64,000 nt of DNA from Escherichia coli (GCF_024223415.1 NZ_CP100500.1); one strand, 5' to 3'. Counted from the first letter of the stretch, positions 1-10,180 are shown. A program made the numbers and translations. Notes: generated by a model from the letters alone, not told the origin.

Positions 1-1235
<1,235 letters not shown>

Positions 1236-1260
1236 GTCTGACTTTATCTGATTTAAAAAT

Positions 1261-1286
1261 GCCAGCCTTCGGGCTGGCGTTTTTTA
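1261..1286. terminator. Rho-independent terminator hairpin between convergent eno and TPM gene (gccagcc-ttcg-ggctggc followed by T-run; A-run on the other side)
   Basis: Perfect 7-bp stem GCCAGCC/GGCTGGC with 4-nt loop, then GTTTTTT; flanked by AAAAAT upstream so it can act on both strands. Confidence 0.8.
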
Positions 1287-1294
1287 TGGTTGAG

Positions 1295-2200
1295 TTACCA
1301 GCGACCGGACGCGCCGCCACCTCCAGAAGAACCGCCACCGCCGCTAAACCCGCCGCCTGAGCCTCCGCCACTTGAGCCGCCACCGGAAGAGGATGAAGAA
1401 GAACCTTTTCTTGAAGCTCTTTCTTTACTGAGTTTTTTGTATTTGGCGCGTAGCTTTTTATTGACGATAAGCCAAAAAATAACCAGTGGTACGATCGCAA
1501 AAGGCGTTAACATACCGCAGGCAACGATTAAATTGGTCCATGGTCCTGGCTCGGCAACATAGAGGAATACCATCCCGTAAATGGCGCCAGTGAGAGTGAT
1601 CCAGGGTAAATTCGACGGATCGGTAAAAACAATAAAATATGAAAGTACCGCCAGCAATATAATTACAGCAAGCGATAATGGAATAGGGGGATTGATACTG
1701 TAATAATCCCCCCTGTCTTCCGGTAATTCACCATTCAACAGAAGCGCGCCGATATTTTCGCTTGCCAGTGTTAATCCACCCATCAGGTCATCACTTTTGA
1801 AGGCAGGGATCAATATATCCCTGATAATCTTCGCCGCTTGCAGGTCGGTAACCACCCCTTCCAGCCCGTAGCCAACCTCAATACGAACAGCATGATCCTC
1901 CCAGGCAACCAGAAGTAAAATACCATCGTTTCTCTGCTTATCTCCCAGTTTCCAGCTATCAAAAACCCTTGTAGCATATTGTTCAATGGAATCGTCTCCG
2001 GTAGACGGCACTACTAATACAGCGACCTGCGCCCGTGTTTTATGTGTAATATCCTGCAGTTGCTGTGTCAGTGATTGTTGTTCAGAAGTGCTTAACGTAC
2101 CAGTAATATCGGTCACCTGTTGGCGCAGTTCCGGCACAGCAATTTGCTGGGCAAGCCCAGGAAGACACCACAAAGTGAATAGAATAAAGATTAAGCGCAT
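1295..2200 (-). CDS. ygcG: TPM-domain (TLP18.3/Psb32/MOLO-1 family) membrane protein, paralog 1; signal peptide, TPM domain, hydrophobic segments, Gly/Ser-rich C-terminal tail ending SGRW
   Basis: ORF 1295-2212; likely ATG at 2200 (MRLIFILF... signal-like N-terminus); TPM-like core (VAVLVVPSTGDDSIEQYATRVFDSWKLG...GILLLVAWEDHAVRIEVGYGLEG); symbol assigned by position next to eno and is uncertain because three paralogs are present. Confidence 0.8.
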   Translation of the reverse strand: MRLIFILFTLWCLPGLAQQIAVPELRQQVTDITGTLSTSEQQSLTQQLQDITHKTRAQVAVLVVPSTGDDSIEQYATRVFDSWKLGDKQRNDGILLLVAWEDHAVRIEVGYGLEGVVTDLQAAKIIRDILIPAFKSDDLMGGLTLASENIGALLLNGELPEDRGDYYSINPPIPLSLAVIILLAVLSYFIVFTDPSNLPWITLTGAIYGMVFLYVAEPGPWTNLIVACGMLTPFAIVPLVIFWLIVNKKLRAKYKKLSKERASRKGSSSSSSGGGSSGGGSGGGFSGGGGSSGGGGASGRW

Positions 2201-2205
2201 TACGA

Positions 2206-3354
2206 TCACCAACGGCCGGATGAACCGCCGCCTCCTGAAGAACCGCCACCACCGCGGAAAGAATTTCTCGACGAAGAGCGAGAGTGAGCATTACGATTCC
2301 CCGTTTTCCTGTTGCTTTTTTCTCCTGATCCCAGCTTAAGATTGCCAGTAAATTTGGCCACAATGATCAGCAGAACGATGCCAGCAATGGTTATTGGACC
2401 GATAAAATGATCAATTAACCCAATAATTGTTGAGATGAATGCAATATCTTTATTACTGGCGAACACTAGGCACCATCCCACAATAATTATCAGCATCACG
2501 ACAAACAATGAATTTCGTCCTGATTCACGAACCTGCGGAGTCTTCTTTTGTTTTTTCACTTTAGCGTTTTTATTTTTTGGGGTCAGCATCATAGGAAATA
2601 CGCGGCACATATTAAAAACTACCGCGAGACGCTGCTTGCAGGTTGTTGCTAACAATAAACTAAAACAAACGACCGATACCCGCCGAATGATGACATCGTC
2701 CTGAAAGGAGAAAAACCAGACCATAGGGGTAATCATCGATATCATCCATATGCCACGCCGTGGGCGGCTGGCAAATCGCCAGAGGACAACGATGGCAACG
2801 ATCATCAGCAGTGTCCAGGCAAGACATGGCAGCGAACGTTGCGGATTAGCAAACAGATGATTGGCTAAAGCATCCAAAGGGCTAATGTTCGCTTTGATAT
2901 GGGTAAACTGTGCGATGCTTTCAATTCCGCCCGTTAATCCAGCAAAGAGATTGTTTTTTTCGAATTCTGGCTGCATATGGTAACGAACAATTTGCGCAGC
3001 TTGTTCCGGCGGCAACATCTGTTCCAGTCCATGTCCAATCTTCATTGACGCCAGCCCTTCCGGCCATACGACGAGAATTAAGATACCTTCGCCATATCGC
3101 TTCTCTCCAACGGGTTTCCAGTGATATACCCCGTATCTCTGCGAGGCTGCAAGTTTAATGTTTTTGCCCCCTGTGGTCGGCGTAACCAACACGGCCACCT
3201 GGAAGTGGTTTTGCTGCTCGAGAGTCTGTAATTGTTGAGTTAAAGCAGTTTGTTCTTCTGTCGTTAATGTCCCGGTTAAGTCAGTTACTGAAGGCCATTG
3301 TTCAGCGAATACCTGAAAACCGCATAGCATCAGAAGTAAGAGAAAAATACGCAT
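2206..3354 (-). CDS. TPM-domain membrane protein, paralog 2 (382 aa), with extra Lys-rich linker and additional hydrophobic segments; C-terminal GGGGSSGGGGSSGRW
   Basis: ORF with ATG at 3354; N-terminal signal-like MRIFLLLLMLCGFQVFA; TPM-like core (VAVLVTPTTGG...GILILVVWPEGLASMKIGHGLE); stop 5 nt upstream of paralog 1 start. Confidence 0.8.
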   Translation of the reverse strand: MRIFLLLLMLCGFQVFAEQWPSVTDLTGTLTTEEQTALTQQLQTLEQQNHFQVAVLVTPTTGGKNIKLAASQRYGVYHWKPVGEKRYGEGILILVVWPEGLASMKIGHGLEQMLPPEQAAQIVRYHMQPEFEKNNLFAGLTGGIESIAQFTHIKANISPLDALANHLFANPQRSLPCLAWTLLMIVAIVVLWRFASRPRRGIWMISMITPMVWFFSFQDDVIIRRVSVVCFSLLLATTCKQRLAVVFNMCRVFPMMLTPKNKNAKVKKQKKTPQVRESGRNSLFVVMLIIIVGWCLVFASNKDIAFISTIIGLIDHFIGPITIAGIVLLIIVAKFTGNLKLGSGEKSNRKTGNRNAHSRSSSRNSFRGGGGSSGGGGSSGRW

Positions 3355-3368
3355 ATCAATTCCTTTTG

Positions 3369-4262
3369 TTACCAGCGCCCGGAAGCGCCACCGCCACCAG
3401 ATGAACCGCCACCACCGCTGAAATTGTCATTGTTGAATGAAGAGGATGACGATGATGAATAGTGGGAGGAAGAATTGCTTCTTGTATGGCGTGATGGCTG
3501 GTTGACATCACGCATCAAATCCCGAACTTTTTTGCCGAAGGGGGTAAAAGCGATGGCGACAGCCAGGAACGGTGTGGCGAAGCAGAGTAATGTTGCGAGT
3601 ACTCCCCAGCTTCCGCTGAAGCCTGCTATAGGTAAAACAAAGGCCAGTACAATAGCTGCGAAGCAAATTACTCCCAGCGTTTTGATATATCCTCTGGCAG
3701 AAATAAACGTCAGTACTATCGCCCAGACTAACAATGCCCACCAACCGCTAAAGGGCAAAGGGTGATCGGTCGGTGTTATCGTTGCTAAATTATTCCCCGT
3801 AAGACGACTTTCAATATCGCTGATCCCCTTTTGTAAACCGCCAGCTAGGTCGCCTTTTTTAAATGCAGGAATAATACTGTTGCGAATAATTTTCCTGGAC
3901 TGTGCATCCGTAATAATACCTTCCAGCCCGTAACCGATTTCAATACGCACGGTATGATCCTGCCAGGCGACTAACAGTAGAACGCCATCATCACGGTCTT
4001 TATCACCCGGTTTCCAGCTATCGAATACCCGCGTTGCGTACTGCTCGATGGTTTCATCGCCTGTTGTTTCAACCACTAACACGACCAGTTGTGCGTGGCT
4101 TTTTTGCGTCAGGGCTTTAATCTGGTTGGTCAGGGTGTTTACTTCGCTGTTTGTTAATGTGCCCGTTAAGTCATTCACATACTTGGGTGATTCAGGTACT
4201 GGAATTTGTGTGGCAAACACAGATGAACAGAAGAAAGCCATAAGGAAGATAAAATTTCGCAT
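3369..4262 (-). CDS. TPM-domain membrane protein, paralog 3; C-terminal GGGGSSGGGGASGRW
   Basis: ORF 3369-4292; preferred ATG at 4262 (MRNFIFLMAFFCSSVFA signal-like, GGGGAAG RBS upstream); TPM core nearly identical to paralog 1 (YATRVFDSWKPGDKDRDDGVLLLVAWQDHTVRIEIGYGLEG). Confidence 0.8.
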   Translation of the reverse strand: MRNFIFLMAFFCSSVFATQIPVPESPKYVNDLTGTLTNSEVNTLTNQIKALTQKSHAQLVVLVVETTGDETIEQYATRVFDSWKPGDKDRDDGVLLLVAWQDHTVRIEIGYGLEGIITDAQSRKIIRNSIIPAFKKGDLAGGLQKGISDIESRLTGNNLATITPTDHPLPFSGWWALLVWAIVLTFISARGYIKTLGVICFAAIVLAFVLPIAGFSGSWGVLATLLCFATPFLAVAIAFTPFGKKVRDLMRDVNQPSRHTRSNSSSHYSSSSSSSFNNDNFSGGGGSSGGGGASGRW

Positions 4263-4275
4263 AGAACTTCCCCGC

Positions 4276-4878
4276 TTAATGAGCATTAGCATTCTGGCTA
4301 AAATCTATTGTTGGGGCTTTACTTACTGCGGCGACATCATCCGGCAAATAATTTTTCTTTGGTGTGTAATCCATGACCTTTGCGGTTAACACAGCGGGGA
4401 ATTTGCGGATAGTGACATTATATTGTTCAATGGCTTTAATATATCTTCCTCGCGCAACGGCAATCCGATTTTCACTTCCTTCAAGCTGTACCATTAAATT
4501 TTGATAGAGTTCCTGAGATTTTAACTCAGGGTAACGCTCACTAATTATCGTTAACTGACCGAGAGTGCGAGTCACCTGCGCTTGAGCCTGTTGCCAGGCT
4601 TGTAATTTTTGTTCATCTCCCGGAGTTTGCTGAAGATCGCTACTGGCGCGATTAGCCTGGCTACGAGCCAATGTTACGGCTTCCAGTACATCTCGTTCAT
4701 GGCTGGAATAACCTTTAATGCTGGCGACAAGATTAGGAATAAGATCGGCGCGACGTTGATATTGATTCAATACCTCAGACCAGGAGGCGTTAACCTGCTC
4801 ATCATAGGTTTGAATATCGTTATATCCACAGCCTGATAAATTGAAAATAAATATAATTACGATGAATATTCTGAGCAT
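4276..4878 (-). CDS. lemA: LemA-family lipoprotein (lipobox LSGC near N-terminus)
   Basis: 200-aa ORF with LemA-like motifs (NASWSEVLNQYQRRADLIPNLV, ERYPELK); first gene of the lemA-TPM-TPM-TPM co-directional cluster. Confidence 0.8.
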   Translation of the reverse strand: MLRIFIVIIFIFNLSGCGYNDIQTYDEQVNASWSEVLNQYQRRADLIPNLVASIKGYSSHERDVLEAVTLARSQANRASSDLQQTPGDEQKLQAWQQAQAQVTRTLGQLTIISERYPELKSQELYQNLMVQLEGSENRIAVARGRYIKAIEQYNVTIRKFPAVLTAKVMDYTPKKNYLPDDVAAVSKAPTIDFSQNANAH

Positions 4879-5050
4879 GTTTAAATCCCTTTTAATTAAT
4901 TCCTTAAAACATAATACTCTGCTTCATTTTATTCTTTATGATCTAATCCACTTTTTGCCATAAACCTGCCTGTAACAGAATGTTAATAAGACATGATTGT
5001 TGTGGCAGGATCTGCAATAATTAACAATTATCCACTTCACAGAGAATGCT

Positions 5051-5722
5051 ATGCAGTACCCGATTAACGAGATGTTCCAGACCCTGCAAGGTGAGGGTTA
5101 CTTTACCGGCGTCCCCGCCATTTTTATTCGTTTACAGGGATGCCCGGTTGGCTGTGCCTGGTGCGACACCAAACACACCTGGGAAAAGCTTGAGGATCGG
5201 GAAGTCTCCCTTTTCAGCATTCTGGCGAAGACCAAAGAGAGTGATAAGTGGGGGGCGGCGAGCAGTGAAGATTTGCTGGCTGTCATTGGTCGCCAGGGAT
5301 ACACCGCGCGGCATGTGGTGATTACGGGTGGTGAGCCTTGCATTCATGATTTGCTACCACTGACAGATCTGCTCGAAAAGAACGGTTTTAGCTGCCAGAT
5401 CGAAACCAGTGGTACTCATGAGGTACGCTGCACACCGAATACCTGGGTTACCGTATCACCAAAGCTGAACATGCGCGGCGGCTATGAAGTGTTGTCACAG
5501 GCACTGGAGCGAGCCAACGAAATCAAGCATCCAGTGGGACGCGTACGTGATATTGAAGCACTGGATGAACTTTTGGCGACGCTGACCGATGATAAACCGC
5601 GAGTCATTGCACTGCAGCCGATTAGCCAAAAGGATGATGCCACACGTTTGTGCATTGAAACCTGCATTGCGCGTAATTGGCGTTTGTCGATGCAAACCCA
5701 TAAATATTTAAATATTGCCTGA
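5051..5722 (+). CDS. queE: 7-carboxy-7-deazaguanine synthase (radical SAM, queuosine biosynthesis)
   Basis: 223-aa ORF; CxxxCxxC-type cluster motif (GCPVGCAWCDT) and overall match to QueE/YgcF. Confidence 0.93.
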   Translation: MQYPINEMFQTLQGEGYFTGVPAIFIRLQGCPVGCAWCDTKHTWEKLEDREVSLFSILAKTKESDKWGAASSEDLLAVIGRQGYTARHVVITGGEPCIHDLLPLTDLLEKNGFSCQIETSGTHEVRCTPNTWVTVSPKLNMRGGYEVLSQALERANEIKHPVGRVRDIEALDELLATLTDDKPRVIALQPISQKDDATRLCIETCIARNWRLSMQTHKYLNIA

Positions 5723-5899
5723 TTAAACATTTATAAGCGTTATAAATGGGTGGAAACTGTAAAGACTTCTACTCATTTATATTCTTTGTCGTCTCTGAAA
5801 AACCTCCATTTTGCCCATCCTGAACTAATCATTATCATTCTCTACAAATTCTGTGGCGTTAATTTTTCGCTGGAGTGAAAACTATTGCGGTAAAGTTTG

Positions 5900-6059
5900 G
5901 TAGATTTTAGTTTGTATAGAGTTATTTTAAATATTTACCTTTTTAATCAATGGGTTAAGTGCTCTTTAACATGATGGATGTGTTGTTTGTGTGATACTGT
6001 AAAGTTGGTAGATTGTGACTGGCTTAAAAAATCATTAATTAATAATAGGTTATGTTTAG
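5900..6059 (+). promoter_or_regulatory. CRISPR leader (AT-rich) for array at 6060-6759
   Basis: AT-rich sequence ending ...taggttatgtttaga immediately 5' of first repeat; resembles the E. coli I-E leader as I recall it; boundaries approximate. Confidence 0.7.
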
Positions 6060-6759
6060 AGAGTTCCCCGCGCTAGCGGGGATAAACCGGCTGGATACCG
6101 ATCAATTCAATATCGTTTTACGAGTTCCCCGCGCTAGCGGGGATAAACCGGAATACCGATTCATAACGGCGGAAATGTGGATGAGTTCCCCGCGCTAGCG
6201 GGGATAAACCGGTTAATGATGTCAGTGGCGGTTTTCGTATCGCGAGTTCCCCGCGCTAGCGGGGATAAACCGAGTGAGGCAATCAAATGACCCGCCCGCA
6301 ATTAGAGTTCCCCGCGCCAGCGGGGATAAACCGTAAATCCCTCGCGCATCGAGTCAAATGTCGGAGAGTTCCCCGCGCCAGCGGGGATAAACCGGTCGCT
6401 GGAACGGGGCGAATAAAGAGGGGCTCGAGTTCCCCGCGCCAGCGGGGATAAACCGACAGCTCTTTCCCGTCGTTATCCAGTTGGTAAGAGTTCCCCGCGC
6501 CAGCGGGGATAAACCATATGATTCACGAATTACAGGAAACCAGCCGCCGAGTTCCCCGCGTCAGCGGGGGTAAACCGCTATCGGGGTGATTCTGCCAATG
6601 CTCAGAGTGGTGTTCCCCGCGCCAGCGGGGATAAACCGAGCGTTTGCTCCGGGTGGAATAACCCTGGCGGGTGTTCCCCGCTCCAGCGGGGATAAACCGT
6701 TTGCTGGAACCCAAAACTCAGCGCACAGGTTGTGTTCCCCGCGCCAGCGGGGATAAACC
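6060..6759 (+). CRISPR. Type I-E CRISPR array, 12 repeats of 29 bp with 11 spacers of 32 bp (61-bp period)
   Basis: Repeats GAGTTCCCCGCGC[T/C]AGCGGGGATAAACCG at 6060, 6121, 6182, 6243, 6304, 6365, 6426, 6487, 6548, 6609, 6670, 6731; distal repeats degenerate (GTG..., last base A). Confidence 0.98.
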
Positions 6760-7214
6760 ACCATATAACCCGTTATCTCTTTCTCAAGTTTTTATATTAG
6801 CTGTACTTGTAATAAGCAACATATCCACGTAACACCTCATGTTCAAAATAGTTCCCCATGCCAGATAAGTTCACAATTATCGATACAAAAAATTAAATTT
6901 AATCAAAGTGTTATTTGTATAATTCTTAAGCCGTTAAGAAATTTTAATCTATTATTTTTTTAATATTAATTAATGCCTGTTAATTTTTTCTTTAGTATAA
7001 CAGTGTATTTTTTAAGCTTGTTATTCATTGATTAAGTAATAAATCTGGAAATTTGTCTTTGTTTTGAGGCTAATGAGTGGTTTTACATAACCGCCTCTAT
7101 ACGCTGTTGATGAATAGTTCTTATGAATAAAGATATCCAGTTCATACTTTAAGTGAAAATTGATAAAGTGCGATTCGTATTGTCTTTTATTCTAAAGACA
7201 TCGAGTGTAGTTAA

Positions 7215-7352
7215 TATTCCTTGTAAAAACAGGGATAAACCGAACTAGTTAAAGTTTTTATTATGTTCCCTGCATCAGCGGGGATAAACCGGACTTGTTA
7301 TCATTTTTTAAGTTGTCGAACTTATGTTCCCCGCGCCAGCGGGGATAACCAT
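7215..7352 (+). CRISPR. Degenerate CRISPR remnant (2-3 decayed repeats, one 32-bp spacer) preceded by AT-rich leader-like region
   Basis: Repeat-like atgttccctgcatcagcggggataaaccg at 7263-7291 and atgttccccgcgccagcggggataacc at 7324-7350; partial cagggataaaccg at 7231-7243. Confidence 0.75.
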
Positions 7353-7397
7353 TCAGGTATGTTCAGGCCGGGCAGTTTCCCGCCCGGTCTTCCTCAC

Positions 7398-8876
7398 TTA
7401 CGCATTCGACCAGCTCTGGATCGAATCCGCATTCCCCAATTCCCCATGCATCACTTCATACGATTTTTTCAGGATCACATCAGTATGTTTGGTTAGGTCT
7501 TTGAAAATGCCTTTATTCATCGCGTCGTAGCGTTTGGCATTGCTCTCAATCGGTATAAAGATATCTTTCACGCGAACCATTTTATCGACAGCCGTTGCGT
7601 AATCCGGGTATAGCCCCAGACCTACCGCTGTATTAATCGCTGCCCCCAGGCTTGCACAACCGTTAATGGCGTTACGGCGTGCCGGAAGGTTGAACACGTC
7701 GGCAAAAATCTGCATAAACAGATCGCTGTTCGAACCGCCGCCAGTAATGATCACATGCTTTGCAAAGTGATTCATTTCATTACACATATTGTCGTAATTG
7801 TTCTTCAGCGTCAGCGCCACGCTTTCCAGTATAGAACGATATATCCATGCGTAATCCATGCTGGAATCAAAGCCGATCATAATCCCACGTTTGTAGGGTT
7901 CCCACGGGTTGGTCAGCCAGTCCAGCACCGTCATCAGACCATTACAGCCAGGCGGCACACAAGAAGCTTTTTTGTTGAGCAAATCTTCCGGTGAAAGATC
8001 CTGTGCTTTGGCATCCTGAATTAACGACTCGCCTAGCATGTCGCGCAGCCAGCTCACCGTCCACATGCCTTTACGGATACCGTAACCTTCATACAGCAAT
8101 GTTTGCGGAATAGAAGACATAATCGGCCAGTACGCCACCGGATCTTTCGGCAGTGCTTTGCCGTTCATCATCAATGCGATGTAAGTGCCAAGAGAAATTA
8201 CCGCCGTTTCATCATCCAGTAATCCGGCCCCCAGAGCTTCTACCGGTTTATCACTGGTGGTACAAACAACCGGCAGTCCTGCCGGGAAATGTGTCGCCAG
8301 TGCGGCTTGTGGTGTGATATGTCCGAGGACGGTGCCAGGCATTTGCACATCAAACAGCATATGACGGGGGATATTAAACTTATCCATTACCGCAGCATCT
8401 TCACTCCATGCCCAGCTCTTATAATCCACCGGCCACTGACCAAAATAGTTGGAGATATTGTCTTTAAACTCGCCGGTTAAGCGATGCGTCAGATAACCCG
8501 AAAAAGAGGTGACATAGGCCACGTCAGGATTAGTGTGTTCGTAGGGACGCGTTACGCGTGCATCCTGCCAGCTAATCAATGGCGCAGCTGGCGTGCCATC
8601 GGCTTTCAATAACGCACGGCAGCAACGGATGGATCCCAGACCAATACCGACAATATCTTCTTTATTCCCGGCAAACTGACTCATCAAATCGTGACCGGCA
8701 AAACATAATGATGCCCATAAATCGTCGTCAGGATGTTCTGCGGTATCGGCATCTGGCGTGTGCATCGGCTGCAATAAGCCTTTACCTTCGCAAACCACAT
8801 TACCTTCCAGATCGTACATCACCACTTTTGTGCTCTGACTTCCGCCATCAATCCCTATGATGTATTTTTTCGACAT
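7398..8876 (-). CDS. ygcE: FGGY-family carbohydrate kinase
   Basis: 492-aa ORF; FGGY kinase N-terminus (YIIGIDGGSQSTKVVMYD) and position next to CRISPR array as in K-12. Confidence 0.9.
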   Translation of the reverse strand: MSKKYIIGIDGGSQSTKVVMYDLEGNVVCEGKGLLQPMHTPDADTAEHPDDDLWASLCFAGHDLMSQFAGNKEDIVGIGLGSIRCCRALLKADGTPAAPLISWQDARVTRPYEHTNPDVAYVTSFSGYLTHRLTGEFKDNISNYFGQWPVDYKSWAWSEDAAVMDKFNIPRHMLFDVQMPGTVLGHITPQAALATHFPAGLPVVCTTSDKPVEALGAGLLDDETAVISLGTYIALMMNGKALPKDPVAYWPIMSSIPQTLLYEGYGIRKGMWTVSWLRDMLGESLIQDAKAQDLSPEDLLNKKASCVPPGCNGLMTVLDWLTNPWEPYKRGIMIGFDSSMDYAWIYRSILESVALTLKNNYDNMCNEMNHFAKHVIITGGGSNSDLFMQIFADVFNLPARRNAINGCASLGAAINTAVGLGLYPDYATAVDKMVRVKDIFIPIESNAKRYDAMNKGIFKDLTKHTDVILKKSYEVMHGELGNADSIQSWSNA

Positions 8877-8902
8877 GATTTTTCTCCTGTAATTTTCCTG
8901 GC

Positions 8903-10180
8903 TTACTTGCTGCTAGCTATTGCGGGGGCGCTATCAGCAGTACGAATTTTTTGGAACAGCAAAAAGGTAAAGACAATCACCATGGCAAGCGCCGCCATGC
9001 CCATCAGCCACATATTGCGGTAGGCTTCTGCTGCGGGCAGGGTGTCTTGCCAGTGGCCGATAATGGGGTAAACGAAGACATCCGGCAGGAATCCAATCAC
9101 CGAACAAATACCTACCGTGGTGCCCATAATGTAAGACGGTGTTCTCGCTTCGCCAGGGCAGGCCCAGTACAGCCCGCGTGAGGCGTAACAGGTGAATCCC
9201 AGCAGTAAAATCAGGCCAATCCCCATCGCGACCGATTGCGGGTTAGAGTTCGTGACGAGCAGGGCAGTCAGTGCCAGCAGGCCGATGATGGAAAGGATTT
9301 GAATCACGCGGGTAGGGGATTTCACTTTGCTGTAGGTGGTGATTATGCCGCCAAGTGGGCCGCACAGCGCGCGGAATATTTTGTTGATCACAATCCCCAT
9401 GTAGCTCGCCGCCACCAGCGACATGCCGTACATTTCGGTCAGATAGTTGGTGGAGTAACTCAGAATGGCGTAGATGGTGAAGACACCAAAAATCACCATG
9501 CTGCAATACCAGGTGGTGCTGATGCGCAAAACGGCCAGGATGTCGCTAAGCTGGAATGATTGTTTTTCTTCGTTATTGGCACTGCGCAGGTTGTTGTTAT
9601 CGCTAACAAAAAACCAGCACAGAATCCCCAACAAGATGTAAACCACACTGTAGATGATAATGACCGTTTTCAGGCTGGCGCTGTCATCCGGTGCAAAGCG
9701 AGAAAAAACCCACATGGTAAACACTGCCAGCGACATTACACCGACGCCGCGCAGCCCTTCCATCCAGCCCATAATTTTCCCTTGCTCGCTATGATCGCCA
9801 AGCAACGATGCGGCTTTAATCGACACCGACCACAGCATTAAAATCGTTGTTATCGCAAAGGCGACCTGAATACAGAGCATTACCCACAGCGGTGGATACG
9901 TTGCCATTAACAGACCCAGTAATCCGGTAATGATCATCGCGGAAGTAATCATTTTGCGGTGTGAAAATTTATCGGCAATAACGCCGCTGGGGGCATAAAG
10001 AATAATAGCCGCAATACCAAAGGTACTCATTATTAAACCTATCTCGGTATTGCTGAATCCCATAAATTTCGCCATGGGAATTTGATAAATATAACGTAAA
10101 TAAGCCAGGTCGAAACTAACGCCGCCGCTAAAACTAATTATCGCGAGGGTTATCCAACGGCGATATGAGTTGTGTTGCAT
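8903..10180 (-). CDS. yqcE: MFS-family transporter
   Basis: 425-aa ORF with ~12 hydrophobic segments; gene order matches K-12 yqcE. Confidence 0.85.
   Translation of the reverse strand: MQHNSYRRWITLAIISFSGGVSFDLAYLRYIYQIPMAKFMGFSNTEIGLIMSTFGIAAIILYAPSGVIADKFSHRKMITSAMIITGLLGLLMATYPPLWVMLCIQVAFAITTILMLWSVSIKAASLLGDHSEQGKIMGWMEGLRGVGVMSLAVFTMWVFSRFAPDDSASLKTVIIIYSVVYILLGILCWFFVSDNNNLRSANNEEKQSFQLSDILAVLRISTTWYCSMVIFGVFTIYAILSYSTNYLTEMYGMSLVAASYMGIVINKIFRALCGPLGGIITTYSKVKSPTRVIQILSIIGLLALTALLVTNSNPQSVAMGIGLILLLGFTCYASRGLYWACPGEARTPSYIMGTTVGICSVIGFLPDVFVYPIIGHWQDTLPAAEAYRNMWLMGMAALAMVIVFTFLLFQKIRTADSAPAIASSK

Follow-up and report, generated by a model that had tools for sequence, protein, structure and literature searches.

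What is the four-gene array that lies between queE and eno on some Escherichia coli chromosomes, from what did it arise, and what might it do for the cell? The question is raised by a 64-kb window (the whole stretch of 64,000 nucleotides analysed here, from E. coli NZ_CP100500.1), in which positions 1295 to 4878 hold lemA, a gene of the LemA family, followed on the minus strand by three genes for membrane proteins with a TPM domain, called here TPM1, TPM2 and TPM3. It is near certain that these genes form a four-gene, chromosomal, strain-variable operon, and that this operon is an Escherichia-specific derivative of one made up of lemA, a membrane TPM gene and a cytoplasmic TPM gene. The genes are already public, as RefSeq labels them 'LemA family protein' and, three times over, 'TPM domain-containing protein' in more than 1,000 genomes. 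New here is the triple membrane-TPM variant, while the uncharacterised kind of operon and its public annotation were known already. The genes are as follows.

4878-4276, minus strand: lemA, ATG at 4878, TAA at 4278-4276, 200 amino acids (aa), from the listing of open reading frames (ORFs) and a minus-strand reading
4262-3369, minus strand: TPM1 (class 1), ATG at 4262, TAA at 3371-3369, 297 aa
3354-2206, minus strand: TPM2 (class 2), ATG at 3354, TGA at 2208-2206, 382 aa
2200-1295, minus strand: TPM3 (class 3), ATG at 2200, TAA at 1297-1295, 301 aa

All four genes are co-directional, with gaps of 13, 14 and 5 nucleotides (nt) in the order lemA, TPM1, TPM2, TPM3; the longer ORF variants (307 and 305 aa) are upstream in-frame starts that overlap the preceding gene. 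The end of the operon is marked by a further element.

1261-1278, both strands: bidirectional intrinsic terminator, hairpin GCCAGCC-CGAA-GGCTGGC

On the minus strand this hairpin is a GC-rich 7-bp stem with 6 GC pairs followed by the T-run ATTTTTAAAT, and on the plus strand the same hairpin is followed by the T-run GTTTTTTATGG. Since it stands between the stops of TPM3 (1295) and eno (1235) and has T-runs on both strands, it constitutes a terminator that is common to the operon and eno and acts in both directions. A first-pass annotation of the window, made from the DNA sequence, had described four tightly packed minus-strand genes, with gaps of 5-14 nt, that share a terminator with eno, and the spacing and the hairpin at 1278-1261 agree with that description. 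It had also called the products a LemA-family lipoprotein and three TPM paralogues with signal peptides, membrane segments and conserved Gly/Ser tails, calls that Pfam and PDB searches, the lipobox and the topology described below all uphold.

LemA and the three TPM proteins

LemA matches Pfam PF04011 over the full model (E = 5.6e-48, positions 1-149 of 149), and a PDB sequence search pairs it with 2ETD, the 'lemA protein' TM0961 (E = 7.7e-32). Its N-terminus is a lipoprotein signal peptide with the lipobox NLSG|C, and the motif L-[ST]-G-C-G-Y-N is kept, with a few single substitutions, in all full-length orthologues fetched. The AlphaFold 2 (AF2) model of the mature protein contains long helices at 3-68, 73-99 and 104-142, with a predicted local distance difference test score (pLDDT) of ~80. 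The signal peptide and the model show LemA as a predicted exported, lipid-anchored protein whose helical bundle would be displayed in the periplasm. This helical-bundle domain is shared with TM0961 and with MamQ, a protein of magnetosome membrane biogenesis, but LemA here is a lipoprotein, its partner genes encode TPM proteins and nothing in its setting relates to magnetosomes, and its 89.9 bits against the MamQ equivalog model NF040966 fall below the curated cut-off of 250. LemA-family genes are also present in phage records from Enterococcus, Listeria, Lactococcus and Lysinibacillus, at 27-43% identity to the LemA described here, and one such phage gene is annotated as a virion structural protein.

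The three TPM proteins match Pfam PF04536 (TPM_phosphatase) with E values of 8.7e-41 for TPM1, 3.7e-21 for TPM2 and 4e-38 for TPM3. In the PDB sequence search TPM1 finds 7TBR (3.1e-21), BA41 of Bizionia argentinensis (5ANP, 1.1e-20) and 2KW7, in a range of 1e-19 to 1e-21, and AF2 models its domain as an alpha/beta fold with pLDDT ~90. Hydropathy and charge give TPM1, TPM3 and the K-12 protein YgcG a common layout, namely a cleavable signal peptide, a periplasmic domain of ~145 aa, three transmembrane (TM) helices and a basic, Ser/Gly-rich tail that the positive-inside rule places in the cytoplasm. TPM2 has five TM helices; the basic loop at 240-277 (11 Lys/Arg) and the two helices that it has in addition to those of TPM1 and TPM3 would leave its tail in the cytoplasm as well. 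This predicted topology shows all three to be inner-membrane proteins with a periplasmic TPM domain and a cytoplasmic tail. Each tail terminates in GGGGSSGGGG(A/S)SGRW:

TPM1 tail: Ser/Gly, C-terminal sequence ...GGGGSSGGGGASGRW
TPM2 tail: C-terminal sequence ...GGGGSSGGGGSSGRW
TPM3 tail: long Gly/Ser, C-terminal sequence ...GGGGSSGGGGASGRW

The paralogues differ in how much of the conserved TPM core they keep. In 65 membrane-TPM (A-type) orthologues, 29 core positions are each at least 90% conserved; TPM1 retains 25 and TPM3 26 of these 29, including the acidic DDG and LEG..D motifs, and TPM2 retains 18, having lost the conserved D72, D82, R86, G95 and D99. Full-length relatives of TPM2 are found in Escherichia only, and the paralogue nearest to K-12 YgcG is TPM3 (41% overall). 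Subfamily hidden Markov models (HMMs) score all three proteins far higher on the A profile than on the B profile, which represents the cytoplasmic TPM-B type. TPM2 was also considered as an offspring of TPM-B, a candidate that we rejected: a neighbour-joining tree put it beside the B clade, but the HMMs give it 79.6 bits on A and nothing on B, and this match to A only attributes its position in the tree to long-branch attraction.

A comparison with known TPM proteins places these products more precisely. BA41, like the COG1512-type 'YgcG family' of membrane TPM proteins, has the same signal peptide, TPM domain, membrane segment and Gly-rich tail; it ends in ...GGGGASGGW, in contrast to ...GGGG(A/S)SGRW here, and HMMER prints the BA41 stretch without a significant score. 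Three tandem paralogues stand here in place of one; in TPM2 the TPM domain is degenerate and two TM helices are added. Psb32/TLP18.3 of photosystem II repair, CcoZ (Cj1484) and the TPM protein of the mycobacterial supercomplex share the TPM fold and a location on the extracytoplasmic side of an energy-transducing membrane, but they are distant in sequence and have neither a LemA partner nor a Gly-rich tail. Against the Psb32 equivalog NF047379, which has a cut-off of 160 bits, TPM1 scores 35.7 and TPM3 31, and TPM2 has no match. Judged by these profile matches, the proteins belong to the LemA and TPM families, with the TPM proteins in a BA41-like membrane subtype. Scores far below the curated cut-offs exclude them from the MamQ and Psb32 equivalogs.

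Origin and variation of the array

A scan of one genome per species, in which genes were classed with subfamily HMMs, yields 80 loci, mostly from beta- and gammaproteobacteria, and the usual operon across them consists of lemA, one TPM-A and one TPM-B. TPM-A proteins have 280-310 aa, the architecture described above and the tail GGGGxFGGGGASG[RSDN]W, and a gene of this type follows lemA in 65 of the surveyed loci. TPM-B proteins have ~170 aa, lack a signal peptide or membrane helix and end in NELPDRPxxL. TPM-A matches BA41 (5ANP) and TPM-B matches BA42 (4OA3/2MPB; E = 2.1e-15), the NELPDRPxxL motif included. The lemA-TPM operon is common in proteobacteria, and structures have been solved for the counterparts of both its TPM types in Bizionia, a member of the Bacteroidetes. 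Recurrent neighbours of the operon (tsaB, rimI, a family-4 uracil-DNA glycosylase and lplT) were considered as functional hints and set aside as lineage-specific housekeeping synteny.

The locus here shares with this canonical operon the lemA-first order, a tail-bearing membrane TPM gene in the next position, tight packing on one strand, the LemA lipobox and the tail motif, but it has two extra TPM-A paralogues in the place of TPM-B. No TPM-B ORF is found at the locus, nor does the rest of the 64-kb window contain one. Among the 80 loci, three tail-bearing TPM-A genes occur in E. coli and E. albertii only, which bears out the earlier impression that such an array is unusual; Entomohabitans has two, and the Escherichia and Entomohabitans arrays alike lack TPM-B. 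Elsewhere, the tail of TPM-A might have its cytoplasmic partner in TPM-B (at 8414-8923 in one surveyed locus, for example). The arrangement queE-lemA-TPM-eno recurs in E. albertii, Klebsiella spallanzanii and Entomohabitans teleogrylli. In K. spallanzanii the queE-eno interval encodes, at 6001-6858, a protein of 285 aa that has no TPM domain at all but resembles TPM2 (29% over 235 aa) in its signal peptide, its membrane region and its tail, and ~1.6 kb without a called gene separates it from eno.

Within E. coli the operon is variable, as counts over 5,426 complete genomes show. About a fifth of E. coli genomes possess the full set of four genes. At least 80% of the 3.9-kb region is present in 1,102 genomes, the same number as carry TPM2; lemA and the TPM1 membrane segment are each found in 1,451, the class-3 (TPM3) membrane segment in 782, and the K-12-type ygcG in 3,933. 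All copies are chromosomal, with none on a plasmid in this genome set and no operon genes in E. coli phages, and the sole E. coli record in the plasmid collection has 4.9 Mb, the size of a chromosome. Carriers include the pathogens O157:H7, CFT073, 536 and LF82. Laboratory strains lack the operon, and work on K-12 has therefore missed it. Among natural E. coli genotypes the number of membrane TPM genes ranges from zero to three and lemA may be present or absent, which makes for a genetically easy system; current understanding is not overturned by the locus, whose value is that of a clean entry point to an uncharacterised, conserved envelope module.

The state of the same site in K-12 reveals how far the locus can decay. 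There the queE-eno interval holds ygcG and the 46-codon yqcG only, without lemA, TPM1 or TPM2. Alignment and blastn both find the first 206-207 nt of the K-12 interval to be 83-84% identical to the queE-lemA promoter region and lemA start of the window, and a lower-identity alignment then runs through ~30 lemA codons. When K-12 yqcG (2482-2622 of the K-12 locus stretch) is aligned to positions 4790-5050 of the window, K-12 has a 1-nt deletion directly after the lemA ATG, as a result of which the 46-codon yqcG would read the former signal-peptide sequence from an upstream start. YqcG and LemA share the pattern IIFIF...ND...D..VN. Farther along, positions 468-1222 of the K-12 interval share 94% identity with the final gene in the arrays of 536 and of the GTDB representative genome, and positions 207-467 match no array compared. 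A single simple deletion of the observed array was rejected as the origin of the K-12 locus, since positions 207-467 are unmatched and point to a mosaic.

The K-12 ygcG-yqcG pair and the operon occupy the same queE-eno site behind homologous promoter regions, and YgcG is a class-4 TPM-A with an identical tail, but it is only 37-41% identical to TPM1 and TPM3. On these alignments the K-12 locus is a decayed, derived mosaic remnant and not the ancestral form, and yqcG preserves the lemA 5' end as a fossil, which gives the small K-12 protein YqcG an origin. The K-12 form is taken as derived because yqcG aligns with the lemA start and because the array stands at the same site in other taxa. The first-pass annotation had named ygcG as the single TPM gene of K-12 at this position, correctly, and had taken the array for a strain-variable expansion. 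The variability stands, with the region in 1,102 and the K-12-type gene in 3,933 of the 5,426 genomes, so that the four-gene set is neither that of K-12, which lacks lemA, nor that of most E. coli; the notion of an expansion relative to K-12 does not, K-12 being a decayed derivative.

The variation has a likely source in the DNA that encodes the tails, where three direct repeats are found.

3368-3422, minus strand: tail-coding direct repeat copy 1, 3' end of TPM1
2205-2259, minus strand: tail-coding direct repeat copy 2, 3' end of TPM2
1294-1348, minus strand: tail-coding direct repeat copy 3, 3' end of TPM3

The copies have 55 nt each and are 78-85% identical to one another. O157:H7 RV06, a laboratory 'culture mutant', lacks TPM2, and a comparison of its locus stretch 2440-2580 with positions 2170-2280 and 3340-3440 of the window shows TPM1-type sequence passing into TPM2-type sequence within the common GGTGGTGGCGGTTC stretch of the repeat. 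This junction indicates that RV06 lost TPM2 by unequal recombination inside the tail-coding repeat, and a crossover at that place means that the repeats do drive changes in copy number. A comparison of annotated arrays shows that the BA41-like membrane TPM gene has diversified into four paralogue classes in Escherichia, which are combined in arrays of one to three and shuffled by tail-repeat recombination:

Type 1-2-3: this window, MS20658, E. albertii and O157:H7
Type 1(pseudogene)-2-(3/4 mosaic): LF82 and 536
Type 1-3-4: the GTDB representative genome of E. coli
Type lemA + truncated TPM1 + unrelated ORF: E. coli Z142-3
K-12 form: yqcG + class 4 (ygcG)

In Z142-3 the unrelated ORF (locus stretch 1592-1954) encodes a hypothetical membrane protein of 120 aa, dissimilar to the TPM genes, in place of TPM2 and TPM3.

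Selection on the genes was estimated from the ratio of nonsynonymous to synonymous substitution rates (dN/dS) against E. albertii and other E. coli alleles. The ratio is 0.03-0.09 for lemA, 0.11-0.15 for TPM3, 0.16-0.19 for TPM1 and 0.26-0.40 for TPM2, the fastest of the four; between E. coli and E. albertii only, it is 0.03-0.26 at dS 0.39-0.76, with all four ORFs intact in both. By this measure all four genes are under purifying selection, and TPM2 is the least constrained. The dS of lemA between E. coli alleles is 0.23-0.26, far above the usual level of E. coli core genes. Such a divergence points to allelic lineages of great age, or else to sequence acquired from divergent Escherichia by recombination or import.

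Probable stress link and possible function

If the operon is maintained by selection, under what circumstances would it be expressed? The region that bears on this lies directly upstream of lemA.

4879-5050, 172 nt: queE/lemA divergent intergenic region, presumed operon promoter and lemA ribosome-binding site

A sigma-70 scan of this region finds nothing convincing. In K-12, the queE-yqcG intergenic region is bound by phosphorylated PhoP (PMC4974570) and by sigma-S RNA polymerase (PMC4447067), and RefSeq names yqcG a 'cell envelope stress response protein'. In addition, a Flavobacterium sppA mutant under membrane stress induces lemA together with a TPM gene (PMC13236525). Because the promoter region of the operon is the one that K-12 keeps upstream of the stress-induced yqcG, expression of the operon is probably linked to stress, through PhoPQ, sigma-S or envelope damage. 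This also suggests an earlier role for the DNA upstream of queE that is bound by PhoP and sigma-S, namely to serve a larger envelope operon.

The best explanation of the locus as a whole, to which we give somewhat short of an even chance, is a stress-linked envelope module in which LemA and the TPM proteins work together. Its mechanistic part is put forward tentatively: LemA and the TPM proteins may act as a scaffold or chaperone under stress. The TPM paralogues would form a homo- or hetero-oligomeric platform in the inner membrane, which with LemA would work at the periplasmic face to stabilise or repair membrane-protein assemblies, or the envelope itself. TPM2, having lost many conserved TPM residues, would be a structural, non-catalytic subunit. 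The proposal is drawn by analogy. Some TPM proteins assist photosystem II, some accompany PspA (PMC11237479), others belong to cbb3 oxidase and to the mycobacterial CIII-CIV respiratory supercomplex (PMC8267372), and a LemA-like domain has been proposed as a membrane scaffold (bioRxiv 10.64898/2026.07.15.738315).

The module is dispensable on this view, as about 73% of the complete E. coli genomes have lost lemA.

Several points weigh against this scaffold or chaperone role and the stress link on which it draws. Frequent loss and damage to TPM1 show that the parts are not individually needed: a premature stop leaves O157:H7 with a TPM1 of 224 aa (Z869 locus stretch 2589-3263), and in RV06, which has the same TPM1 protein, the ORF stops early in the third membrane helix; in LF82 (2659-3330) and 536 (2674-3345) TPM1 is an annotated pseudogene with its C-terminus missing. 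The promoter argument rests on homology to K-12 DNA. A scan of the intergenic region for the PhoP-box consensus with 1 mismatch allowed finds none, and no claim is made for a hand-picked box, TGTTAC-N5-GGTTTA, one half-site of which departs from the consensus at two positions. An AF2 run on LemA joined to the TPM1 domain through a (GGGGS)5 linker, with a 38-row species-paired alignment, lends no support to a contact between the two: it returns confident domains with a predicted template modelling score (pTM) of only 0.54, although, giving no predicted aligned error (PAE), it is a weak test. No client complex is known, and no gene is consistently linked to lemA, TPM-A and TPM-B in the surveyed loci that would hint at one. 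Finally, literature searches (LemA with TPM, ygcG, yqcG and the Pfam families) found no experiment or functional study on these four genes.

A periplasmic hydrolase system is an unlikely alternative, in which the TPM domains would be metal-dependent phosphatases or nucleotidases that differ in substrate from one paralogue to the next, with LemA as an accessory. TPM1 and TPM3 would be suited to such a role, keeping as they do 25-26 of the 29 conserved positions with the acidic DDG and LEG..D motifs among them, and published accounts describe BA42 and TLP18.3 as phosphatases or metal binders and report an ATPase/ADPase activity for BA41. However, TPM2 has lost D72, D82, R86, G95 and D99, yet purifying selection on it persists, and hydrolysis leaves both the conserved cytoplasmic tail and the LemA partner unexplained. 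The enzyme activities reported for TPM domains are, moreover, weak. The domain itself is the subject of competing hypotheses, with a generic phosphatase on one side and the repair or assembly of complexes on the other (PMC11237479).

Two further readings are improbable to a like degree. In one, LemA and the membrane TPM proteins would form a trans-periplasmic device, with LemA at the outer membrane contacting the TPM domains of the inner membrane and the tail docking a cytoplasmic partner. LemA is assigned to the outer membrane here because no Lol-avoidance residue follows the lipidated Cys and because CGYN is conserved. The conserved tail GGGG-A/S-S-G-x-W would serve as the docking site, and the partner in most proteobacteria would be the BA42-like TPM, which Escherichia would have dropped in favour of heteromeric TPM-A assemblies built from recombining paralogues. 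In YqcG, the small K-12 protein induced by envelope stress, the LemA signal peptide would then live on as a fossil, still expressed from the old operon promoter.

The other holds that the locus is decaying and largely redundant, a (nearly) neutral relic whose triple array would do no more than a single TPM gene does. The losses described above are what such a relic would display: lemA is missing from ~73% and TPM2 from ~80% of complete genomes, what K-12 retains of lemA is no more than a fossil, O157:H7 has a truncated TPM1 and LF82 and 536 a TPM1 pseudogene, the laboratory O157 mutant has lost TPM2, and constraint on TPM2 is relaxed (dN/dS 0.26-0.40). Against this, a comparison of E. coli with E. 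albertii finds all four ORFs intact and constrained by purifying selection (dN/dS 0.03-0.26), the tight translational spacing and the operon's own terminator are preserved, and the tail motif is kept in every paralogue.

Least probable is a conflict module, whether for anti-phage, anti-colicin or anti-CDI (contact-dependent inhibition) defence or as a diversifying inner-membrane receptor: strain variability, four paralogue classes, mosaic genes, an unusually deep allelic divergence in E. coli (lemA dS 0.23-0.26), the adjoining CRISPR2 array (clustered regularly interspaced short palindromic repeats) and LemA homologues in some Gram-positive phages would fit it, but a PADLOC-DB 2.0 scan of the four proteins matches zero families at E <= 0.01, dN/dS is well below 1 for every gene, the chromosomal site between queE and eno is fixed and syntenic in four taxa, no E. 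coli plasmid or phage copies are found, and other proteobacteria carry the operon amid housekeeping genes (tsaB, rimI, udg). A mobile element was likewise rejected, on account of the same fixed queE-eno site and the lack of copies on E. coli plasmids or phages.

Flanking features

Upstream of the operon, queE lies at 5051-5722, divergent from lemA. Beyond it stands the main CRISPR array, with 12 type I-E repeats (GAGTTCCCCGCGCCAGCGGGGATAAACCG) at a period of 61 nt, at 6061-6759. The first-pass annotation had noted this array and read it as a sign of accessory or stress-related modules. The flank itself is there, with its 12 repeats, but the accessory or defence hint falls away, given the fixed synteny, the lack of a PADLOC match and the lack of mobile copies; because the chromosomal synteny is fixed, adjacency to the array lends no support to a role in defence. 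An Rfam scan of positions 1-9000 finds no RNA families.

The array is the one that RefSeq annotates as CRISPR downstream of queE, and it sits between queE and a sugar-kinase gene at 7398-8876, presumably ygcE, with no cas genes in between. Two to three degenerate repeats follow at 7214-7350, separated from the main array by an AT-rich stretch (GC 0.28, 6751-7250). In E. coli EC2001 (5096-6611), an insertion of ISKpn26, an IS5-like element, and an adjoining deletion removed the CRISPR region together with queE and the 5' portion of ygcG.

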